IMG/VR virus record: IMGVR_UViG_2684622582_000005
Span: 1 to 8,016 of that record
Direction: 5' to 3' (one strand)
Source of the DNA: a virus
Lineage: Duplodnaviria; Heunggongvirae; Uroviricota; Caudoviricetes
DNA length: 8,016 nucleotides
Below are positions 1 through 8,016 of the stretch, one piece after another. The position numbers were made by a program, and so were the translations under genes. Below the pieces are notes generated by a model. It was given only the letters and a program-made list of their open reading frames with translations. It was not told the DNA's origin and ran no database searches. Position 1 is the stretch's first letter, and every line of letters begins with the position of its first letter.

Positions 1-1284
1 CTACTTTTTCGCCTCTGCAACCACTTTGCTACCCACGCCGCGGTTATTGTATTCCCACATGCGGTTGTAGTTAGTGTCATTCAGATTGCGCTGTACTTCG
101 TCGTTATCATCAACGTTGCCAGTATTACCCGCAAACGGACGATTGGAAATCACCGCATCGGCCCACGGTTTCGCCGTGTTAAAACCTTCGTTGATGGCGC
201 TATCACGGATCACTACCTGACCGTTGGTATTGGCATCAACATCCAGCGAGCGGCCCAGTTGCGCCACGCCATCACCGGAAGCATTGAAACGGCTGTTTAC
301 GGCGAGGAAACCGTAGTAAATGTTGGACAGCGTAGCCGGTGCAAACACATACGCTTCTTGCTGGGTACGGGAGTTCACCACGCGGAATTCGGTGTTATCG
401 AACACCACTGCGCCGCGACCAGAAACGATATCCACATCCCCTTCAATATAGCTGTTGGTCACCAGCGTACGCGGCTGACGATTCGTTTCCAGACGGTTCT
501 GCACACCGCTGTTGGTGACAAAGAAGGTGTTCTGACGACCGAGAATGTTGACGTTATTGATCTGCACTTTGTCGCCATCAGTACGCAGTGCCACCGCCGG
601 ATGGTTACCCGCATCTACGCTATCGCCCAGCGTGTTTTCGATGGTCAGGTTTTGCAGTTGCAGGCCATTGTTTTGTGACCAGAAGACCGCAGAGCAGAGA
701 ACACCGATACTGTCGCTGCGTTTACTCTGGCAGCTATCGTACATATACCACGCCGGTTTACCTGGCATATATTTGCCGCGCGGGTTGACGTCGTGACGCC
801 AGTCGGCAGGGCTCATGCCACCATCAAGGGAAAGCCCAATCTTCACATCAATCGGTTTTTCACCTGTACCGTATAGAGTAATTCCACCCGGAGCGGCAGG
901 GACATACACCGTTCCCTGATACTCACCAGGCATCACGGCAATATACTGGCGCTTGTTGGTACGCTTGATAATTGCCGCATCTACCGCCGCCTGAATCGTG
1001 GTATGCGTTACACCTTGAGTACCCGCCGGGCCGACAACAAAGTCAGGTTGCGCAGGCAGGGTAATCGGGGAAGGATTCCACGCTGCCGCACCTGGTGTCA
1101 GGGATGCAAAATAGTGTTGAGCATCGAAATTCTGCGCTTCTTTTGCCGACAGAATCGGGCGCGAAGAGGTACCAGGCGCGGTTTGATCAGAAGGACGTTG
1201 ATCGGGCGGTGTTGAGCTACAGGCGGTCAGCGTCACGCCAAAAGCCAATGCCAGCGCCAGACGGGAAACTGAAAATGTGTTCAC
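1..1284 (-). CDS. ybhC: YbhC, putative outer-membrane lipoprotein (pectinesterase-like / acyl-CoA thioesterase family); host gene flanking attB-lambda
   Basis: 427-aa ORF spanning 1..1284 on the minus strand. N-terminus MNTFSVSRLALALAFGVTLTAC has a signal peptide and lipobox (LTAC). Length and sequence match my memory of E. coli YbhC, the gene on the gal side of attB-lambda. Start ATG at 1284, stop at 1..3. Confidence 0.9.
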   Translation of the reverse strand: MNTFSVSRLALALAFGVTLTACSSTPPDQRPSDQTAPGTSSRPILSAKEAQNFDAQHYFASLTPGAAAWNPSPITLPAQPDFVVGPAGTQGVTHTTIQAAVDAAIIKRTNKRQYIAVMPGEYQGTVYVPAAPGGITLYGTGEKPIDVKIGLSLDGGMSPADWRHDVNPRGKYMPGKPAWYMYDSCQSKRSDSIGVLCSAVFWSQNNGLQLQNLTIENTLGDSVDAGNHPAVALRTDGDKVQINNVNILGRQNTFFVTNSGVQNRLETNRQPRTLVTNSYIEGDVDIVSGRGAVVFDNTEFRVVNSRTQQEAYVFAPATLSNIYYGFLAVNSRFNASGDGVAQLGRSLDVDANTNGQVVIRDSAINEGFNTAKPWADAVISNRPFAGNTGNVDDNDEVQRNLNDTNYNRMWEYNNRGVGSKVVAEAKK

Positions 1285-1315
1285 AGGTTGCTCCGGGCTA
1301 TGAAATAGAAAAATG

Positions 1316-1421
1316 AATCCGTTGAAGCCTGCTTTTTTATACTAAGTTGGCATTATAAAAAAGCATTGCTTATCAATTTGTTGCAACGAACAGGTCACTA
1401 TTAGTCAAAATAAAATCATTA
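1316..1421. other. attL: attL (B-O-P') of lambda-type site-specific integration; 15-bp core at 1331..1345
   Basis: Host-side B arm TTGAAGCCT, then core GCTTTTTTATACTAA (1331..1345), then P'-arm sequence GTTGGCATTATAAAAAAGCATTGCTTATCAATTTGTTGCAACGAACAGGTCACTAT... as in lambda attP, running directly into the int stop codon. Confidence 0.88.
1371..1421. promoter_or_regulatory. P'-arm protein-binding sites: IHF H' site (TATCAATTTGTTG, 1371..1383) and three tandem Int arm-type sites (about 1391..1421)
   Basis: TATCAATTTGTTG fits the IHF consensus WATCAANNNNTTR. CAGGTCACTAT / TAGTCAAAAT / AAATCATTAT resemble the Int arm-type consensus (C/A)AGTCACTAT and sit where P'1-P'3 lie in lambda. Confidence 0.7.
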
Positions 1422-2345
1422 TTTGATTTCAATTTTGTCCCACTCCCTGCCTCTGTCATCACGATACTGTGATGCCATGGTGTCCGACTTATGCCCGAGA
1501 AGATGTTGAGCAAACTTATCGCTTATCTGCTTCTCATAGAGTCTTGCAGACAAACTGCGCAACTCGTGAAAGGTAGGCGGATCCCCTTCGAAGGAAAGAC
1601 CTGATGCTTTTCGTGCGCGCATAAAATACTTTACACCTGTTTTGCTTTGCTCGACATAAAGATATCCATCTACGATATCAGACCACTTCATTTCGCATAA
1701 ATCACCAACTCGCTGCCCGGTAACAACAGCCAGTTCCATTGCAAGTCTGAGCCAACATGGTGATGATTCTGCTGCTTGATAAATTTTCAGGTATTCGTCA
1801 GCCGTAAGTCTTGATCTCCTTACCTCTGATTTTGCAGCGCGAGTGGCAGCGACCGGGTTTATTGTTATATGGCCTTCAGCTATTGCCTCTCGGAATGCAT
1901 CGCTCAGTGTTGATCTGATTAACTTGGCTGACGCCGCTTTGCCCTCGTCTATGTATCCATTGAGCATTGCCGCAATTTCTTTTGTGGTGATGTCTTCAAG
2001 TGGAGCATCAGGCAGCCCCCTCCTTATTGCTTTAATTTTGCTCATGTAATTTATGAGTGTCTTCTGCTTGATTCCTCTGCTGGCGAGGATTTTTTCGTAG
2101 CGATCAAGCCATGAATGTAACGTAACAGAATTATCACTGTTGATTCTCGCTGTCAGAGGCTTGTGTTTGTGTCCTGAAAATAACTCAATGTTGGCCTGTA
2201 TTGCTTCAGTGATTGCTATCCTCCTGTCTCGGCCTAAACCAAACTCTTTACCCGTCCTTGGGTCCCTGTAGCAGTAATATCCATTGTTTCTTATATAAAG
2301 GTTAGGGGGTAAATCCCGGCGCTCATGACTTCGCCTTCTTCCCAT
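1419..2345 (-). CDS. int: Lambda-type tyrosine integrase Int with an in-frame 48-residue internal deletion (308 aa instead of 356 aa); probably inactive
   Basis: N-terminus MGRRRSHERRDLPPNLYIRNNGYYCYRDPRTGKEFGLGRD and C-terminus ...LLGHKSDTMASQYRDDRGREWDKIEIK match lambda Int. The residue count places R212 and K235 at their lambda positions and maps H260/R263/H285/Y294 onto lambda H308/R311/H333/Y342, which fits a loss of residues 240-287. The lambda BamHI site (GGATCC, about 1580) is retained. Confidence 0.88.
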   Translation of the reverse strand: MGRRRSHERRDLPPNLYIRNNGYYCYRDPRTGKEFGLGRDRRIAITEAIQANIELFSGHKHKPLTARINSDNSVTLHSWLDRYEKILASRGIKQKTLINYMSKIKAIRRGLPDAPLEDITTKEIAAMLNGYIDEGKAASAKLIRSTLSDAFREAIAEGHITINPVAATRAAKSEVRRSRLTADEYLKIYQAAESSPCWLRLAMELAVVTGQRVGDLCEMKWSDIVDGYLYVEQSKTGVKYFMRARKASGLSFEGDPPTFHELRSLSARLYEKQISDKFAQHLLGHKSDTMASQYRDDRGREWDKIEIK

Positions 2346-2541
2346 TTCTGATCCTCTTCAAAAGGCTACCTGTTACTGGTCGATTTAAGTCAACCTTTAC
2401 CGCTGATTCGTGGAACAGATACTCTCTTCCATCCTTAACTGGAGGAGGGAATATCCTGCATTCGCGCACCCATCGACGAACTGTTTCAAGGCTTCTTGGG
2501 CGTCGCTGGCGAGCGTTCCACTCCTGAAGTGTCAAGTACAT
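2323..2541 (-). CDS. xis: Excisionase Xis (72 aa)
   Basis: MYLTLQEWNARQRRPRSLETVRRWVRECRIFPPPVKDGREYLFHESAVKVDLNRPVTGSLLKRIRNGKKAKS matches lambda Xis. ATG at 2541; the 3' end overlaps the int start by 23 nt. The 102-aa ORF in the track is an upstream extension in the same frame. Confidence 0.92.
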   Translation of the reverse strand: MYLTLQEWNARQRRPRSLETVRRWVRECRIFPPPVKDGREYLFHESAVKVDLNRPVTGSLLKRIRNGKKAKS

Positions 2542-2562
2542 CGCAAAGTCTCCGCAATTACA

Positions 2563-2589
2563 CGCAAGAAAAAGCCGCATTGATGCGGC
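2563..2589 (-). terminator. Predicted rho-independent terminator (minus strand) between the 114-aa ORF and xis
   Basis: Read on the minus strand: GCCGCATCAATGCGGC (perfect 6-bp stem, 4-nt loop) followed by TTTTTCTTG. Confidence 0.6.
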
Positions 2590-2658
2590 GATGGTAGGTC
2601 TGGATATCATTGAGCAATGAACAGGCCTCATCGAGTGTGAGGCGGTGTTATTTCATGG

Positions 2659-3003
2659 TTAGTCCTTGCGTAGCTCGCTGATTCTTCTGTAAGTCTCTGG
2701 TGCTTTGTTTCCGTGTATCTTCATTTCAGACTTCAACAGAGCAACGAGGGAATCCCATTCGTTGAGGATTCCTTTGAATGCCGGAACGCGCTTTGCAACC
2801 TTGTTGAATGAATCTCTGATTTCTGGAATCTGCTCAACAAGTGCAACGCATCGTCTGAAATCGGCTGCGTCATGGGGAGCGCCGAAGTGATGACCATAGA
2901 TATTCTTTTTCAGTCCACATGCGATTGAGGCAAGAGTTGCGCTACTGATGCCAACATCGCCAGTCGATTGCCATTTCAAAACCTTCATAGCCAAATCTGA
3001 CAT
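2659..3003 (-). CDS. Hypothetical protein, 114 aa; unrecognised accessory gene immediately upstream of xis
   Basis: Intact ORF with ATG at 3003, preceded by GGAGA 6 nt upstream. Co-oriented with the operon. I do not recognise a family from the sequence (MSDLAMKVLKWQSTGDVGISS...YGHHFGAPHDAADFRRC...RRISELRKD). Confidence 0.6.
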   Translation of the reverse strand: MSDLAMKVLKWQSTGDVGISSATLASIACGLKKNIYGHHFGAPHDAADFRRCVALVEQIPEIRDSFNKVAKRVPAFKGILNEWDSLVALLKSEMKIHGNKAPETYRRISELRKD

Positions 3004-3016
3004 TTCTTGTCTCCAA

Positions 3017-3039
3017 TAAAAAAACCGCCATCAGGCGGC
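3017..3039 (-). terminator. Predicted rho-independent terminator (minus strand) downstream of the 59-aa zinc-ribbon gene
   Basis: Read on the minus strand: GCCGCC-TGAT-GGCGG hairpin followed by TTTTTTTA. It ends about 14 nt before the ATG of the 114-aa ORF. Confidence 0.65.
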
Positions 3040-3104
3040 TTGGTGTTCTTTCAGTTCTTCAATTCGAATATTGGTTACATTGTTTTCATATATGAATAAA
3101 TAAA

Positions 3105-3284
3105 TTAGCTTTTTTCGTTGCCTTCGCGTTCTTTATTAATTTTGACAAAATCGTTTTTACCACGCTCTCCAAATGCGTCTTTAGAGTCGTTGTATCCGCA
3201 ATCGCAGCACACATAATCATCAGACCATCCACGCATTGTTTTTTCTTTTGCAATATTTCCAGAACCGCATTTTGGACAAGACAT
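3105..3284 (-). CDS. Small zinc-ribbon protein (59 aa), CPKCG...CCDCG; possible Ea8.5-like
   Basis: ATG at 3284 preceded by GGAGG with a 7-nt spacer; product MSCPKCGSGNIAKEKTMRGWSDDYVCCDCGYNDSK... The track's 70-aa version starts at an upstream TTG with no obvious RBS. Two CxxC pairs; paralogous in pattern to the 65-aa ORF at 4457..4654. Confidence 0.55.
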   Translation of the reverse strand: MSCPKCGSGNIAKEKTMRGWSDDYVCCDCGYNDSKDAFGERGKNDFVKINKEREGNEKS

Positions 3285-3380
3285 ATCACTACCTCCAAAG
3301 CATGAGAGAGATGACAACGTAACATTGATTGGAGATTAACAATAGATTGCTGATGTAAAAGATATGTATAAGCTTAGCTA

Positions 3381-4169
3381 TCAAAGGGGAGGTTCTGGTA
3401 GTTGCATCCAGTCGGTTACATTGCGACTCTGTGTTTCGAAAAATTCATCACCATTGCGGACAATATCGAAAAACTCTCCGTCTCGATATTGCGCATAAAG
3501 AACGAATGCGCCATCACATAAAATAATTACGTGCTGACCATCATCTGGCATTCGCTCACTACAGCTTATCCAACCATCCGGAGTTACCGGATAGTTGCCC
3601 GATAGTGCATTCTGCTCCAGTGATGCTTTTACAAAACACGCGGCCTGAACTATTACGTCATGAATCCAGCGCAAATCAGCATCGCGATCTTTCTTTTTCA
3701 TTTTTTCGCCACTTAAAGCCTGGCTTATGTGGCTGCGTACCAGGTCTTCATGTAACGCCTTCGCATCCTCAATGGTGAAACCACCAGGCAGGCGAGCCGG
3801 GGTTACATGAGGGTTGCCTTCCCCCTGACTCTGAAGCATGGTGGCGCGGCAGGCGTTCCAGCCTTCATCAAAACCGACTATGCCATTATTTAAAGACGGA
3901 CGAGCATCTGGCACCACCAGTACTGGCTTGGCTATATATAGCGGCTGAACATACCAACCCTTTGATAACCAACTGTCAGCAATGTTTTTACTCCTCGTTA
4001 TTGCCGGAATACCTAAGCCATTGTCTGAATGAAGCCACGCCACCGGCTCTGCTTCCAGCGATGCCAGAGCAATTTCATAAGCCCGACGCTCAATATTGTC
4101 TCGGACGTCCAGGCTGCCTATGCGCTCTTTGATTTCTTTAATCAGTTCTTTGTCGGTGAAAGTGGTCAT
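3381..4169 (-). CDS. Ea22-like protein with a DUF551-like C-terminal region (262 aa)
   Basis: Likely start is ATG at 4169 (MTTFTDKELIKEIK...), with RBS AAGGAGAG and stop-start coupling (TGAtATG) to the upstream ORF. The C-terminus (...WISCSERMPDDGQHVIILCDG...VTDWMQLPEPPL) resembles the W...PEPP ending I associate with DUF551 prophage proteins. The track's 292-aa version extends upstream across the neighbouring ORF. Confidence 0.65.
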   Translation of the reverse strand: MTTFTDKELIKEIKERIGSLDVRDNIERRAYEIALASLEAEPVAWLHSDNGLGIPAITRSKNIADSWLSKGWYVQPLYIAKPVLVVPDARPSLNNGIVGFDEGWNACRATMLQSQGEGNPHVTPARLPGGFTIEDAKALHEDLVRSHISQALSGEKMKKKDRDADLRWIHDVIVQAACFVKASLEQNALSGNYPVTPDGWISCSERMPDDGQHVIILCDGAFVLYAQYRDGEFFDIVRNGDEFFETQSRNVTDWMQLPEPPL

Positions 4170-4182
4170 ATCACTCTCCTTT
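4167..4182. repeat. 16-nt junction repeat CATATCACTCTCCTTT (copy 1) at the Ea22-like stop / downstream-gene start
   Basis: Identical 16-mer at 4167..4182 and 4652..4667. On the minus strand it reads AAAGGAGAGTGATATG, i.e. RBS plus TGA stop plus ATG start. A degenerate third copy (CATATCACTACCTCC) lies at 3282..3296. Confidence 0.85.
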
Positions 4183-4446
4183 TCCCTGAAGCATAGCCGC
4201 GCGGCAGGCATTCCAGCCTGTAGTGTAATATTGCGCATCATGCCAGCTCGTTTGTACATTTGAGTACGCTTTTTCCTCTGTCATCGGCTCGGGTATTGAT
4301 GGCGCTTGCTTTGCTTCCAGTGATGCCAGTGCAATCCGTGCCAGTTCTTCCGCTTCTTCTGCTGGCAGTACAACGTTGCTACCCGGTCCGTATGTTTCTC
4401 GCCACTGCTTGATTGTCAGCAGTCGATCTTTGGTAATAGTGGTCAT
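4171..4446 (-). CDS. Hypothetical protein (91 aa); truncated paralog of the N-terminal module of the 262-aa Ea22-like protein
   Basis: MTTITKDRL... parallels MTTFTDKEL...; shares the IALASLEA and GWNACRA(A/T)MLQ segments with the 262-aa protein. Ends ...KGE with TGA one nt before the next ATG. Confidence 0.5.
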   Translation of the reverse strand: MTTITKDRLLTIKQWRETYGPGSNVVLPAEEAEELARIALASLEAKQAPSIPEPMTEEKAYSNVQTSWHDAQYYTTGWNACRAAMLQGKGE

Positions 4447-4456
4447 TTGTTATGCC

Positions 4457-4654
4457 TCAATACACAAAATCTGTTTTAAATTCATGGTTACATTCTGGAC
4501 AGCATGTTTCGTAACCTTTTATTTCTTCACATGCCTGTTTTGCTCCAGAAAATTCCCAGAAATCAGCATCGCAAAGCAGATCGAAATTGTGGCCGCATTT
4601 TGGGCATTCAGTATCAAGTGATAAACTCCAGTAAGCAGGTGTGTTTTTGTCCAT
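4457..4654 (-). CDS. Small zinc-ribbon protein (65 aa), CPKCG...CCPEC; possible Ea8.5-like
   Basis: ATG at 4654 preceded by AAGGAGAG; product MDKNTPAYWSLSLDTECPKCGHNFDLLCDADFWEFSGAKQACEEIKGYETCCPECNHEFKTDFVY. It follows an Ea22-like gene with the TGAtATG junction, the position ea8.5 occupies after ea22 in lambda. Confidence 0.55.
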   Translation of the reverse strand: MDKNTPAYWSLSLDTECPKCGHNFDLLCDADFWEFSGAKQACEEIKGYETCCPECNHEFKTDFVY

Positions 4655-4667
4655 ATCACTCTCCTTT
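4652..4667. repeat. 16-nt junction repeat CATATCACTCTCCTTT (copy 2)
   Basis: See copy 1; exact match read directly from the sequence. Confidence 0.85.
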
Positions 4668-5081
4668 GATGCGAATGCCTGCGGCGCGTGGCACATTAAC
4701 TTCCACGATGCGCACTGTTGGTTTGTACATCTCAATCGCTGTCAGCCAGTCAGCTCCTGTCATGCGCTTTTCCGCATCGCCATTAGTCCACTGAACCGGT
4801 ACACCAATAGCCTTCATCGCGATTTCTATTTCCCCGGCAATGGCGCTTTTTCCGCAACCAGTAAAACCAGAAACAACGACAAGAACTTCACCTTTGGCTG
4901 GTTTTATTTCCCGAGCTTCCAGTTCTGCAATGCGCTTTTTGTCTGCTTCCCGTTCATCCAGCAGTGCCAGCACAATCGATGGTGTTACCAGCTCATGGAA
5001 AAGGTCCGCGTCAAATCCCCAGTTGTCATGCATTGCCTGCTCTGCCGCTTCACGCAGTGCCTGAGAGTTAATTTCGCTCAC
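4656..5081 (-). CDS. Ea22-like protein (141 aa) with an internal Walker-A-like motif (GFTGCGKS)
   Basis: GTG start at 5081 overlapping the orf73 stop (GTGA), preceded by AGAGAGG. The N-terminus MSEINSQALREAAEQAMHD... and the ...IRIKGE C-terminus resemble the conserved ends of the ead/Ea22-like family as I recall them. The central segment VLVVVSGFTGCGKSAIAGE (nt 4845..4868 encode GFTGCGKS) fits GxxxxGK[ST]. Confidence 0.6.
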   Translation of the reverse strand: MSEINSQALREAAEQAMHDNWGFDADLFHELVTPSIVLALLDEREADKKRIAELEAREIKPAKGEVLVVVSGFTGCGKSAIAGEIEIAMKAIGVPVQWTNGDAEKRMTGADWLTAIEMYKPTVRIVEVNVPRAAGIRIKGE

Positions 5082-5299
5082 TTCGAACCTCTCTGTTTAC
5101 TGATAAGCTCCAGATCCTCCTGGCAACTTGCACAAGTCCGACAACCCTGAACGATCAGGCGTCTTCGTTCATCTATCGGATCGCCACACTCACAACAATG
5201 AGTGGCAGATACAGCCTGGTGGTTCAGACGACGCATTTTTATTGCTGTATTGCGCTGTAATTCTTCGATTTCTGATGCTGAATCAATGATGTCTGCCAT
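5078..5299 (-). CDS. TraR/DksA-family C4 zinc-finger protein (73 aa), orf73-like
   Basis: MADIIDSASEIEELQRNTAIKMRRLNHQAVSATHCCECGDPIDERRRLIVQGCRTCASCQEDLE... has two CxxC pairs about 17 residues apart, the same length as F-plasmid TraR (73 aa), and sits at the orf73 position of lambdoid exo-xis regions. Confidence 0.75.
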   Translation of the reverse strand: MADIIDSASEIEELQRNTAIKMRRLNHQAVSATHCCECGDPIDERRRLIVQGCRTCASCQEDLELISKQRGSK

Positions 5300-5353
5300 C
5301 TTCCATTAATCCCTGAATTGTTGGTTAATACGCTTGAGGGTGAATGCGAACAA

Positions 5354-5375
5354 TAAAAAAGGAGCCTGTAGCTCC
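5354..5375 (-). terminator. Predicted rho-independent terminator (minus strand) between the orf61-like gene and orf73
   Basis: Read on the minus strand: GGAGC-TACAG-GCTCC hairpin followed by TTTTTTAT, about 22 nt downstream of the orf61-like stop. Confidence 0.6.
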
Positions 5376-5397
5376 CTGATGATTTTGCTTTTCATGT

Positions 5398-5679
5398 TCA
5401 CCGTTCCTTAAAAACGCCGTTTAACATGCCGATCGCCAGGCTTAAATGAGTCGGTGTGAATCCCATCAGCGTTACCGTTTCGCGGTGCTTCTTCAGTACG
5501 CTACGGCAAATGTCATCGACGTTTTTATCCGGAAACTGCTGTCTGGCTTTTTTGATTTCAGAATTAGCCTGACGGGCAATACTGCGAAGGGCGTTTTCCT
5601 GCTGAGGTGTCACTGAACAAGCCCCATGTCGACAAGCATAAGCACACAGAATATGAAGCCCGCGGCCAGAAAAATGCAT
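5398..5679 (-). CDS. orf61-like hypothetical protein (93 aa as drawn; true start uncertain)
   Basis: ORF in the position of lambda orf61, ATG at 5679, 10 nt after the orf63 stop. An internal GTG (VTPQQ...) would give 71 aa. Called by position and operon context only. Confidence 0.5.
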   Translation of the reverse strand: MHFSGRGLHILCAYACRHGACSVTPQQENALRSIARQANSEIKKARQQFPDKNVDDICRSVLKKHRETVTLMGFTPTHLSLAIGMLNGVFKER

Positions 5680-5689
5680 TCAGTGGTTG

Positions 5690-5881
5690 TCATACCTGGT
5701 CTCTCTCATCTGCTTCTGCTTTCGCCACCATCATTTCCAGCTTTTGTGAAAGGGATGTGGCTAACGTATGAAATTCTTCGTCTGTTTCTACTGGTATTGG
5801 CACAAACCTGACTCCAATTTGAGCAAGGCTATGTGCCATCTCAATACTCGTTCTTAACTCAACAGGAGATGCTTTGTGCAT
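5690..5881 (-). CDS. orf63: Orf63 (63 aa), exo-xis region protein
   Basis: 63-aa [66 protein letters not shown] at the expected position; length and sequence match my memory of lambda Orf63. Confidence 0.8.
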   Translation of the reverse strand: MHKASPVELRTSIEMAHSLAQIGVRFVPIPVETDEEFHTLATSLSQKLEMMVAKAEADERDQV

Positions 5882-6036
5882 ACCGCCTCCCGTTTATTAT
5901 TTATCTTCTCAGCCAGCCGCTGTGCTTTCAGTGGATTTCTGATAACAGAAAGGCCGGGAAATACCCAGCCTCGCTTTGTAACGGAGTAGACGAAAGTGAT
6001 CGCGCCTACCCGGATATTATCGTGAGGATGCGTCAT
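5854..6036 (-). CDS. orf60a: Orf60a (60 aa), exo-xis region protein
   Basis: Start at the ATG overlapping the exo stop (ATGA at 6033..6036) gives the 60-aa product [40 protein letters not shown]... The track's 62-aa version starts 2 codons upstream. Confidence 0.8.
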
Positions 6037-6713
6037 CGCCATTGCTCCCCAAATACAAAACCAATTTCAGCCAGTGCCTCGTCCATTTTTTCGATGAACT
6101 CCGGCACCATCTCGTCAAAACTCGCTATGTACTTTTCATCCCGCTCAACCACGACATAATGCAGGCCTTCACGCTTCATACGCGGGTCATAGTTGGCAAA
6201 GTACCAGGCATCTTTTCGCGTCACCCACATGCTGTACTGCACCTGGGCCATGTAAGCCGACTTTATGGCCTCGAAACCACCGAGCCTGAACTTCATGAAA
6301 TCCCGGGAGGTAAACGGGCATTTCAGCTCAAGGCCGTTGCCGTCACTGCATAAACCATCGGGAGAGCAGGCGGTGCGCATACTTTCGTCGCGATAGATGA
6401 TCGGGGATTCAGTAACATTCACGCCGGAAGTGAATTCAAACAGGGTTCTGGCGTCGTTCTCATACTGTTTTCCCCACGCCAGCGCCTTAGCATTAACTTC
6501 CGGAGCCACACCGGTGCAAACCTCAGCCAGCAGGGTGTGGAAGTAGGACATTTTCATGTCAGGCCACTTCTTTCCTGAGCGGGGCTTTGCTATCACGTTG
6601 TGAACTTCTGAAGCGGTGATGACGCCGAGCCGTAATTTGTGCCATGCATCATCCCCCTGTTCGACAGCTCTCACGTCGATCCCGGTACGCTGCAGGATAA
6701 TGTCCGGTGTCAT
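6033..6713 (-). CDS. exo: Lambda exonuclease (Red-alpha), 226 aa
   Basis: [65 protein letters not shown]... matches lambda Exo over its full length. Start overlaps the bet stop (ATGA). Confidence 0.95.
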
Positions 6714-7495
6714 GCTGCCACCTTCTGCTCAGTGGCTTTCTGTTTCAGGAATCCAAGAGCTTTCACTGCTTCGGCCTGTGTCAGTTCTGACGATGCGCGA
6801 ATGTCGCGGCGAAATATCTGGGAACAGAGCGGCAATAAGTCGTCATCCCATGTTTTATCCAGGGCGATTAGCAGAGTGTTAATCTCCTGCATGGTTTCAT
6901 CGTTAACCGGAGTGATGTCGCGTTCCGGCTGACGTTCTACAGTGTATGCGGTATTTTCGACAATGCGCTCGGCTTCATCCTTGTCATAGATACCAGCAAA
7001 TCCGAAGGCCAGACGGGCACACTGAATCATGGCTTTATGACGTAACATCCGTTTGGGATGCGACTGCCACGGCCCCGTGATTTCTCTGCCTTCGCGGGTT
7101 TTGAATGGTTCGCGGCGGCATTCATCCATCCACTCGGTAACGCAGATCGGATGATTACGGTCCTTGCGGTAAATCCGGCATGTGCAGGATTCATTGTCCT
7201 GCTCAAAGTCCATGCCATCAAACTGCTGGTTTTCATTGATGATACGGGACCAGCCATCAACGCCCACCACCGGAACGATGCCGTTCTGCTTATCAGGGAA
7301 GGCGTAAATTTCTTTCGTCCACGGATTAAGGCCGTACTGGTTGGCGACGATCAACAATGCGATGAACTGCGCATCGCTGGCATCACCTTTAAATGCCGTC
7401 TGGCGAAGAGTGGTGATCAGTTCCTGTGGGTCGACAGAATCCATGCCGACACGTTCAGCCAGCTTCCCTGCCAGCGTTGCGAGTGCTGTACTCAT
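6710..7495 (-). CDS. bet: Bet (Red-beta) single-strand annealing protein, 261 aa
   Basis: [69 protein letters not shown]... matches lambda Bet over its full length. Confidence 0.95.
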
Positions 7496-7500
7496 CCGTT

Positions 7501-7797
7501 TTATACCTCTGAATCAATATCAAACTGGTGGTGAGCAATGGTTTCAACCATGTACCGGATGTGTTCTGCCATGCGCTCCTGAAACTCAACATCGTCATCA
7601 AACGCACGGGTAATGGCTTTTTTGCTGGCCCCGTGGCGTTGCAAATGATCGATGCATAGCGATTCAAACAGGTGCTGGGGCAGGCCTTTTTCCATGTCGT
7701 CTGCCAGTTCTGCCTCTTTCTCTTCACGGGCGATCTGCTGGTAGTGACGCGCCCAGCTCTGAGCCTCAAGACGATCCTGAATGTAATAAGCGTTCAT
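7501..7797 (-). CDS. gam: Gam (GamS form, 98 aa), RecBCD inhibitor
   Basis: [60 protein letters not shown]... matches lambda Gam from its internal Met. An in-frame TAA 10 codons upstream stops the ORF from extending to the 138-aa long form. Confidence 0.9.
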
Positions 7798-7851
7798 GGC
7801 TGAACTCCTGAAAATGGCTGTGAAAATATCGCCCGCGAAATGCCAGGCTGA

Positions 7852-8016
7852 TTAGGAAAACAGGAAAGGGGGGTAGTGAATGCTTTTGCTTGATCTCAGT
7901 TTCTGTATTAATATCCATTTTTTATAAGCGTCGACGGCCTCACGAAACATCTTTTCATCGCCAATAAAAGTGGCGATAGTGAATTTAGTCTGGATAGCCA
8001 TAATTGTTTGATCCAT
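7852..8016 (-). CDS. kil: Kil (host-killing / cell-division inhibitor), 54 aa here versus 47 aa in lambda
   Basis: The reverse complement of the window end reads ATGGATCAAACAATTATGGCTATCCAG..., giving [47 protein letters not shown], then YPPFLFS before TAA at 7852..7854. The ATG sits exactly at the window edge. Confidence 0.7.

Follow-up and report, generated by a model that had tools for sequence, protein, structure and literature searches.

The stretch of 8,016 nucleotides (nt) at positions 1 to 8,016 of the virus record IMGVR_UViG_2684622582_000005 (Caudoviricetes), referred to here as the window, carries two adjacent open reading frames (ORFs), ORF91 and ORF262, named for the number of amino acids (aa) that each encodes. 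These genes are probably intact paralogues of a modular family of early-operon accessory proteins, and were probably brought together as a pair by homologous recombination between phages at short conserved islands. Underlying this interpretation are the homology of the two genes, mosaic blocks in related loci, breakpoints at the islands, a natural recombinant, purifying selection, and an excess of synonymous conservation in the islands. A sequence-only reading of the same DNA had delimited both ORFs as we do, and had attributed their likeness to a tandem partial duplication followed by internal deletions, with ORF91 as a possible remnant.

Conserved islands and a natural recombinant

The two genes follow one another on the minus strand, joined by TGA-T-ATG:

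4171..4446, minus strand: ORF91, an intact, insert-less short-form family member, with an N-terminal helical hairpin and a C-terminal helical hairpin ending in GWNACRAAMLQGKGE
3381..4169, minus strand: ORF262, a DUF551-fused family member, with a YfdT-like N module, a beta-alpha-beta insert, the GWNACRATMLQ helix, a helical linker and the DUF551 beta domain

The shared N-termini and internal segments that had been noticed by eye are borne out by pairwise alignment, in which residues 1-91 of ORF91 are colinear with residues 1-117 of ORF262 through the blocks MTTxT, IALASLEA and GWNACRA.MLQ..GE. Smith-Waterman alignment of the two scores 76, against 27.3 +/- 4.3 (maximum 42) in 500 shuffles, and an alignment with cheap gaps scores 132, a value reached by none of 500 shuffles (50 +/- 7). 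Plain BLASTP returns the C-terminal block alone (E 2e-7), and gapped Smith-Waterman alignment with shuffles was needed to recover the whole of the similarity. At the DNA level the local alignment score is 52.5 (shuffles 20.4 +/- 3.1, maximum 37), and the similarity comprises only the short motif blocks and the first 9 nt, in three blocks of 9-33 nt. Both imperfect repeats listed by the sequence-only reading exist, at somewhat revised positions: GCGCGGCAGGC(A/G)TTCCAGCC lies at 4199-4218, as reported, with its second copy at 3844-3863, 31 nt away from the 3813-3832 first given, and TGCTTCCAG(T/C)GATGCCAG(T/A)GCAAT lies exactly at 4312-4335 and 4050-4073, where 4310-4332 and 4050-4072 had been given. 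A third repeat, which that reading did not list, is an exact 16-mer, AAAGGAGAGTGATATG, at 4167-4182 and 4652-4667 (chance expectation 0.01).

These repeats belong to a wider pattern. When 94 related loci were compared by blastn with window positions 2917-5116, the 250 distinct high-scoring segment pairs (HSPs) covered most of the region to a depth of 0-5, and a few sharply bounded stretches to a depth of 20-48, with endpoints piling up at the edges. The deep stretches are 4690-4646 (a gene junction), 4452-4308 (N module to IALASLEA island), 4225-4166 (GWNACRAAMLQGKGE-stop-ATG), 4075-4045, 3867-3831 and 3599-3547. The islands that they define measure 16-55 nt, are ~90% or more identical, and include the repeats noticed earlier:

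4652..4667, minus strand: second copy of the junction 16-mer, with K-G-E-stop of an Ea22-like gene, a Shine-Dalgarno (SD) sequence and the ATG of a 65-aa zinc-ribbon gene
4308..4347, minus strand: island 'EELARIALASLEAEP' of ORF91, a mosaic breakpoint that holds the repeat 4312-4335, with 40 HSP endpoints in one 15-nt bin; homology with locus L007 begins at 4335
4186..4219, minus strand: island 'GWNACRAAMLQ' of ORF91, which holds the repeat 4199-4218; the direct-repeat arm paired with 3831-3864 and the crossover site in L098/P0243
4167..4182, minus strand: junction 16-mer AAAGGAGAGTGATATG, with K-G-E-stop of ORF91, SD and the ATG of ORF262
4045..4074, minus strand: island 'IALASLEAEP' of ORF262, a mosaic breakpoint that holds the repeat 4050-4073, at depth 21 against 0-3 in the flanks; the L007 block ends here
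3831..3867, minus strand: island 'GWNACRATMLQ' of ORF262, which holds the repeat 3844-3863; the second direct-repeat arm, with L098 homology to ORF262 beginning at 3864
3547..3599, minus strand: island 'GNYPVTPDGWISCSERMP' at the entry to DUF551, a mosaic breakpoint at depth 33 against 1-2 in the flanks

Long blocks of homology begin at one island and end at another, irrespective of gene borders. The block shared with L007 (4335-4045, 98.3% identity), for instance, extends from the IALASLEA island of one gene to that of the other, straddling the gene boundary. Such high-identity blocks ending in short shared stretches are traces of homologous recombination in the sense of De Paepe et al. (2014). 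The junction island 4646-4690 is conserved in ~20 distinct loci. At 3355-3400 of another locus, L050, the same type of junction links a family gene to the same zinc-ribbon gene in the reverse order. This reversed arrangement suggests that whole genes may have been permuted at the junction.

A natural recombinant is provided by P0243, a 238-aa protein of Escherichia coli GCA_902845455.1 (locus L098), which has the make-up expected of a crossover between the two GWNACRA repeats. Positions 4001-4261 of L098 correspond to window 4446-4186 (96.6%) and positions 4228-4545 to window 3864-3547 (94%), the 34-nt overlap being the repeat itself, and the gene occupies the same genomic position, upstream of a Lar-like gene, a 114-aa gene and int. 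To judge from these alignments, the split pair ORF91+ORF262 and the fused P0243-type gene differ by a single homologous crossover, and the repeats first noticed are probably substrates of recombination.

The islands are conserved beyond what they encode. Synonymous sites within them are over-conserved when one measures how often a shared amino acid is also encoded by an identical codon, in pairs of sequences of which both flanks are unrelated: this frequency is 0.70 in the GWNACRAAML island against 0.39 in its flanks, 0.90 against 0.47 at the DUF551 entry, and 0.67 against 0.55 in the IALASLEA island. For the island at 4308..4347, if the downstream flank alone is required to be unrelated, the values are 0.68 and 0.38.

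Within their common family, ORF91 represents the insert-less, unfused form and ORF262 the insert-bearing, DUF551-fused form. In the mechanism that we propose, crossovers would fall at the start of the gene, at IALASLEA and GWNACRAAML, at the DUF551 entry PVTPDGWISCSERMP and at the junction AAAGGAGAGTGATATG. A crossover between the two GWNACRA copies would fuse ORF91 to the C-terminal part of ORF262, and a product of this kind is found in nature. The agent may be a Rad52-like annealase of the Red/RecT type, as the same prophage carries exo, bet and gam. Several points weigh against this interpretation. The type of the recombination agent is one that we infer, and whether the L098 fusion arose by deletion from a tandem pair, or the pair from a fusion, cannot be told. 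The loci were retrieved by a GWNA/CRAAML peptide pattern, so that depth at the GWNACRA island is partly by construction; the nucleotide-level results and those at other islands are unaffected. The sequence pairs compared for codon use are not independent of one another, the IALASLEA island differs only modestly from its flanks if neither flank may be related, and the excess synonymous conservation could stem from a DNA- or RNA-level function, or from hitch-hiking with a neighbouring block, and not from repeated crossover. Exact ORF91 is rare, being carried contiguously by none of 5426 complete E. coli genomes and forming a 90% cluster of 4 members, and for this reason selection was tested on few close copies with few substitutions. 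Lastly, no significant structural match bears on function, and the confidence of the AlphaFold2 (AF2) models is moderate for ORF91 (predicted local distance difference test, pLDDT, 74) and low for ORF262 (58).

Foremost among the alternatives, although improbable, is that the motifs are kept by protein need alone, and that the junctions arose through illegitimate recombination with selection for in-frame chimaeras, the islands not being substrates. The motifs do lie in predicted helices and are nearly invariant at the protein level, and illegitimate recombination with selection is established for phage mosaicism, in which ~70% of mosaics are without detectable homology traces (PMC3945230). Protein need, however, would leave unexplained both the synonymous conservation above the codon-bias baseline of unrelated flanks, seen at the GWNACRAAML and DUF551 entry islands, and the fact that many independent blocks break at the island edges, to within a few nt. 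Further, the 34-nt overlap of L098 is common to both parental arms, as in a homologous crossover, and the junction 16-mer, which is non-coding as well as coding, is also exactly conserved. A different alternative, that island conservation reflects a function in DNA or RNA (a binding site, translational coupling or ribosome-binding context, or RNA structure) with recombination as a by-product, is very improbable: the junction 16-mer clearly carries an SD and a stop/start coupling signal, and synonymous conservation is present, but the internal islands (IALASLEA, GWNACRAAML and DUF551 entry) lie away from gene starts, the 10-nt palindrome GCCGCGCGGC of the ORF91 island is absent from the ORF262 copy, and an internal regulatory element is unsupported because no RNA family is matched in the window at Rfam gathering thresholds and promoter and terminator sites in 3200-4800 are no commoner than in shuffles.

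Recombination at the islands being the preferred account, a stronger version of it can be put forward tentatively, and is on balance doubtful. Here the in-frame islands (junction 16-mer, IALASLEA, GWNACRAAML and DUF551 entry) would be kept at the nucleotide level as a recombination 'grammar' for annealase-driven domain shuffling between co-resident prophages and phage-plasmids. If true, the locus would represent a natural domain-swapping cassette system, in which ORF91+ORF262 pairs and P0243-type fusions interconvert by single crossovers.

Origin and integrity of ORF91

In the model of the sequence-only reading, the 5' part of ORF262 was duplicated in place, underwent internal deletions, and persists in ORF91 as a decaying, non-functional remnant. 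The similarity is indeed colinear, the genes are adjacent, ORF91 is without a segment equivalent to ORF262 aa 43-95, and exact copies of it are rare in databases. Against a duplication in place, the aligned codons are 57% identical in nt, with 0.49 non-synonymous (dN) and a saturated 1.86 synonymous (dS) substitutions per site between neighbours, and no DNA similarity reaches past the three short motif blocks. Nor are the two genes mutual closest relatives: each half of ORF91 is far closer to genes of other phages (93-98% nt identity) than to ORF262, the C half being 98% identical with L007. The resemblance between ORF91 and ORF262 thus appears, from these comparisons, to be the family resemblance of old paralogues, and not that of a local duplication. 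What stands of the proposed internal deletions is that ORF91 does lack an internal segment relative to ORF262 and to most family members; what falls is that this marks it as a degenerate local duplicate.

The claim that ORF91 is a remnant fares no better. Its frame is unbroken and the gene is identical and intact in three independent assemblies, with intact counterparts in L006, L007, P0242 and the Salmonella forms of 92-96 aa. Purifying selection is evident in both halves, with dN/dS of 0-0.26 over all comparisons and at most 0.13 where dS exceeds 0.6. The N module gives ~0.07-0.26 against 15 homologues, and 0.06-0.13 in the five pairs of greatest divergence (dS 0.68-1.1). The private C half differs from that of L006 by 6 synonymous and 0 non-synonymous codons (dS 0.30), and from those of L098 and L007 by 4 and 1, and 2 and 1, respectively (dN/dS ~0-0.12). 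ORF91 is also preceded by an SD of its own (GAGG) and is coupled through its stop to the start of the following gene, and short forms are recurrent, being conserved in many Salmonella prophages. A long-form relative with an ORF91-type N module, at 3001-3386 of L050, is frameshifted into 86 + 35 aa (…YAAPPFQ-stop / MPNPLSMYAVDAVAAIAEVRGWNACRAAMLQGKGE), and appears from its sequence to be a truly decayed member of the family, unlike ORF91. The remnant part of the duplicate model is largely refuted, and the model as a whole is highly unlikely.

Modules, family and genomic setting

The two proteins are built from the following modules:

4312..4446, minus strand: N module of ORF91, codons 1-45, MTTITKDRLLTIKQWRETYGPGSNVVLPAEEAEELARIALASLEA, the most widely shared block of the region
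4220..4307, minus strand: private C-half segment of ORF91 (QAPSIPEPMTEEKAYSNVQTSWHDAQYYTT), a rare module shared solely with L006, L007 and L098 (depth 3)
4044..4169, minus strand: N module of ORF262, aa 1-42, MTTFTDKELIKEIKERIGSLDVRDNIERRAYEIALASLEAEP, the N-terminal module of E. coli K-12 YfdT
3868..4043, minus strand: insert of ORF262, aa 43-100, a predicted small beta-alpha-beta unit followed by low-confidence coil, absent from ORF91
3387..3575, minus strand: DUF551 domain of ORF262, aa 199-261 (Pfam PF04448, E 7.8e-19, 68.8 bits, cut-off 22), with five AF2 strands at pLDDT 74-87

The N module of ORF91 (4446-4308) is 93-97% identical in nt to ~40 distinct loci, with homology stopping at 4308-4316, and is present in 1202 of the 5426 complete E. 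coli genomes, at up to 7 places per genome. On plasmids it occupies 269 places; these plasmids are of ~89-101 kb, the size of P1-like phage-plasmids (e.g., NZ_CP026725.1 and NZ_CP067234.1), and P1-like phage records annotate an N module of this type as EaA. The presence of the module on P1-like plasmids implies that the family crosses the divide between lambdoid and P1 phages. The AF2 model of ORF91 (pLDDT as above) has four helices, at 6-19, 29-45, 57-64 and 68-88, and the protein is acidic (12 D/E against 9 K/R, counted from the sequence). Foldseek searches of the PDB with this model gave no significant match (best E 2.9), neither Pfam nor NCBIfam matches ORF91, and PDB sequence searches by phmmer with ORF262 and with an ORF91-family profile were empty apart from a single match at E 0.38. 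Searches of phage records with ORF91 by tblastn were broken up by the low-complexity filter over EEAEELARIALASLEA.

In ORF262, residues 1-42 are 86% identical to residues 1-42 of YfdT (E 6e-22). The DNA of this N module is 94-98% identical to that of L071, L046 and L007, with homology stopping at 4045-4048, and its relatives in L071 and L046 (94-96% nt) are stand-alone genes. The insert has no DNA homologue among the 94 loci (depth 0); AF2 predicts strands at 44-48, 56-58 and 73-77 and a helix at 61-69, with segments 79-87 and 90-101 below pLDDT 50. Overall, the model comprises helices at 6-19 and 25-39, the insert at 44-77, a helix at 100-113 with GWNACRATMLQ, a disordered stretch, two long helices, and the five-stranded DUF551. 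For the DUF551 body (3599-3388), identity to L009 and L047 reaches 97-98%. DUF551 is the sole Pfam match of ORF262 and has no match in ORF91, and Pfam and NCBIfam hold nothing for the N-terminal part. Foldseek against the PDB gave only weak, non-significant matches to Tudor/SH3/Sm-like folds and RimP (E >= 0.048), which were not used for function. A 292-aa ORF (3381..4259, minus strand) was considered as the real form of ORF262 and rejected: all homologues, including the identical 262-aa RefSeq protein WP_053294342.1 and YfdT, begin at MTTFT, which places the true start at the ATG of 4169. The 292-aa extension overlaps the 3' end of ORF91 in another frame (MYKRAGMMRNITLQAGMPAARLCFREKESD-); L007 shows the same read-through extension, owing to conservation of the DNA that codes for GWNACRAAMLQGKGE.

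The label 'Ea22-like', which had been attached to the 262-aa gene, belongs elsewhere. By hmmscan, neither ORF262 nor ORF91 matches PF13935 (Ead_Ea22) at E <= 0.1, and the Ead_Ea22 match of the region is instead the 141-aa ORF at 4656..5081; the naming may be compared with that of some annotators, who call DUF551 genes 'Ea22'.

Both proteins belong to a large family. A word-indexed search with ORF91 returned 971 homologues, and an exhaustive search 660 clusters (50% identity, members of 65-385 aa), so that the family comprises at least that many clusters. ORF91 and ORF262 each match PHROGs 60, 3323, 660 and 5117 (function unassigned), and PHROG 5117, a 125-residue family, spans ORF262 residues 1-115 end to end. 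Members occur in lambdoid, P22-like and P1-like prophages of Enterobacteriaceae; species-representative genome contigs, which include few E. coli and Salmonella prophages, supplied only 6 loci, and viral contigs were the productive source. The family plan read from the alignments is an N module MTTITKERLLTIKQWRETYGPGSNVVLPAEEAEELARIALASLEAEP, a variable middle ending ...YAAPPxPVVPE, a variable short stretch, GWNACRAAMLQG, and an end that is either KGE-stop or a linker leading into DUF551 or another tail. Each of our two proteins begins with M-[TS]-T-x-T, and its helical hairpin closes with IALASLEA(E)P. N modules come in several sequence types, that of ORF91 being the very common 'MTTITKERLLTIKQW' type and that of ORF262 the YfdT type, and one N module may be found joined to many different middles and tails. 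The helix bearing GWNACR..ML lies at aa 77-86 in ORF91, followed by KGE-stop-ATG, and at aa 103-112 in ORF262, followed by the linker and DUF551. Across 63 sequences the motif shows no variation at W78, N79 or C81, and R82 is kept in at least 90%; neither the motif nor the N module has a Pfam or NCBIfam model. The AF2 helices common to both proteins are 6-19, 29-45 and 68-88 of ORF91, and 6-19, 25-39 and 100-113 of ORF262.

Forms of 91-96 aa without the middle comprise the ORF91 type in E. coli and those of many Salmonella prophages, which have a different C half. In the latter, forms of 92-96 aa are recurrent, P0112 alone being found on 76 contigs and in 116 index blocks. In 68 distinct family ORFs extending as far as the GWNACR end, DUF551 is fused in 19, encoded by the very next ORF in 18, located further downstream in 10, and absent from the locus in 21. 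The GWNACR module and DUF551 occur either in one protein or in neighbouring, translationally coupled genes, and for this reason may act together; ORF91 would then work with ORF262, whose start is coupled to the ORF91 stop. Our best guess, of low confidence, is that these proteins might be small acidic helical adaptors, which would present variable domains to host targets in early infection, induction or lysogeny. In Salmonella prophages L001-L005 (e.g., L005 238-2364), a string of genes encodes Ead_Ea22, proteins of 71 and 141 aa, the 92-aa short form, and a DUF551 protein; this string sits between replication genes and terminase, and not in exo-xis, indicating that the cassette moves between genome regions.

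The window itself is the left arm of a lambda-like prophage, the integration site of which adjoins ybhC, and is 100% identical to E. coli assembly GCA_001268365.1 (contig CXYT01000002.1). The minus-strand order is int, xis, a 114-aa gene, the Lar-like gene, ORF262, ORF91, the 65-aa zinc ribbon, the 141-aa Ea22-like gene, orf73 (DksA/TraR type), orf61/63/60a, exo, bet, gam and kil, all co-oriented in the leftward, early-left (pL) direction, which places ORF91 and ORF262 in the exo-xis early-left location of a lambdoid prophage. The neighbours to which we refer are:

1419..2345, minus strand: int, from the ORF list and the gene calls of related copies
3105..3317, minus strand: Lar-like zinc ribbon, 59 aa as called in L095-L097, or 70 aa if an upstream TTG is used
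4457..4654, minus strand: 65-aa zinc-ribbon gene (CxxC...CxxC), on the upstream side of ORF91
4656..5081, minus strand: 141-aa ORF, the actual Ead/Ea22-like gene (Pfam PF13935, E 1.7e-12, 48.5 bits, cut-off 27), with which the L095-L097 gene calls agree
6033-7797, minus strand: exo, bet and gam, from gene calls, 2-3 kb from the ORF91/ORF262 pair

The two small zinc-ribbon genes flank ORF262 and ORF91, and each is itself a separately exchanged block; that at 4667-4427 is 94-98% identical to L033, L050 and L091. The C-terminal part of the 141-aa Ead/Ea22-like protein contains a Walker-A-like GFTGCGKS, and the protein has weak matches to APS kinase and AAA_16 (E 0.03-0.04) and to the NCBIfam adenylyl-sulfate kinase model (E 0.006). 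By sequence it could be a variant of Ea22 with a P-loop C-terminal domain. The integrase, of 308 aa, has an in-frame internal deletion of ~141-144 nt (junction near 1630-1632) relative to L095 and L097, otherwise 99.9%-identical copies of the prophage region in which Int has 356 aa; the window's copy of the prophage, with its shortened integrase, may be unable to excise. PADLOC-DB defence models match none of ORF91, ORF262 and four neighbouring genes (E <= 0.01).

Comparison with known systems

For annotation, ORF91 should be retained as a real gene, ORF262 described as a YfdT-like/DUF551 fusion and not as Ea22, and the name Ea22-like reserved for the adjacent 141-aa ORF. The family is large, with its N module in about a fifth of complete E. 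coli genomes, yet has no Pfam model. More broadly, the locus is a clean, small example of the diversification of lambdoid accessory proteins by exchange at islands of 16-55 nt on domain borders, with one natural recombinant caught between the GWNACRA repeats first noticed. The idea of 'linker' or boundary sequences in the modular theory of phage evolution is reportedly that of Susskind and Botstein in 1978, and is said to be taken up by Clark et al. in 2001 for HK620. Our literature searches on linker sequences or gene boundaries in lambdoid phages returned nothing specific, and on EaA only passing mention.

Experimental handles exist on relatives only, namely YfdS/YfdT (suppression of replication initiation, and peroxide sensitivity) and Ea22 (the lysis-lysogeny decision). 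YfdT (b2363), from the cryptic prophage CPS-53 of E. coli K-12, is a stand-alone protein of 101 aa in which the N module is followed by a different C half, and is thus a short form like ORF91. It differs in being without the GWNACRAAML motif and DUF551, and the N module of ORF91 is of another sequence type (BLASTP against YfdT not significant, E 0.12). In a CPS-53-like prophage of strain DFK.1, a 203-aa DUF551 protein follows yfdQ-yfdR-yfdS and is colinear with ORF262 except for the helical linker. Multicopy suppression of hda-185 over-initiation needs yfdT or yfdS together with yfdQR, and yfdS is linked to peroxide sensitivity (PMC4776307).

Ea22 of lambda, and its variants V1-V3 in Shiga toxin (Stx) phages, share the exo-xis neighbourhood and operon of ORF91 and ORF262, and their products are likewise acidic. 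The same mosaic logic applies to them, in that a shared N-terminal, coiled part is combined with interchangeable C-terminal domains; Ea22 variants are mosaics with portable C-terminal domains, variant V2 of Stx phages carries DUF551, and a pro-lysogenic effect has been shown for Ea22 (PMC10834534). The phenotype is known from Ea22, not from ORF91 or ORF262. These two lack a match to PF13935, and the hairpin of their N module is of another sequence family. Similar to ORF91 in their N-terminal sequence are 'EaA' proteins of the Shigella phages POCJ13 and 75/02 Stx, and of a P1-like phage, of which the first 26 residues are 88-96% identical to the ORF91 N module, and Salmonella homologues of 92 aa are named 'Eaa protein' in UniRef. 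The body of POCJ13 EaA (308 aa) is nevertheless different from ORF91, and Eaa/EaA are annotation names, used in P22-like, Stx and P1-like phages, without a defined family model.

In its broad outline the locus belongs to a known kind, that of lambdoid exo-xis/nin accessory genes shuffled by homology-driven mosaicism, and leaves the current understanding of phage mosaicism unchanged. Rad52-like phage recombinases make mosaics between short diverged sequences, and exchange affects small pieces of genes more frequently than entire modules (PMC3945230; PMC2327257); Red-beta requires at least ~30 bp (PMC3945230). As in the systems of Martinsohn et al. (2008) and De Paepe et al. (2014), short conserved stretches flank exchanged blocks, often of less than a gene, next door to a recombinase operon, and islands of 16-55 nt are of the order of the Red-beta minimum. 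The added interest of the present locus lies in its cleanly bounded in-frame islands, the conservation of synonymous sites within them, and the natural recombinant. Where it departs from general mosaicism is that its islands lie inside coding sequence, in frame and at the domain borders of a single family, so that domains, and not only genes, would be shuffled.

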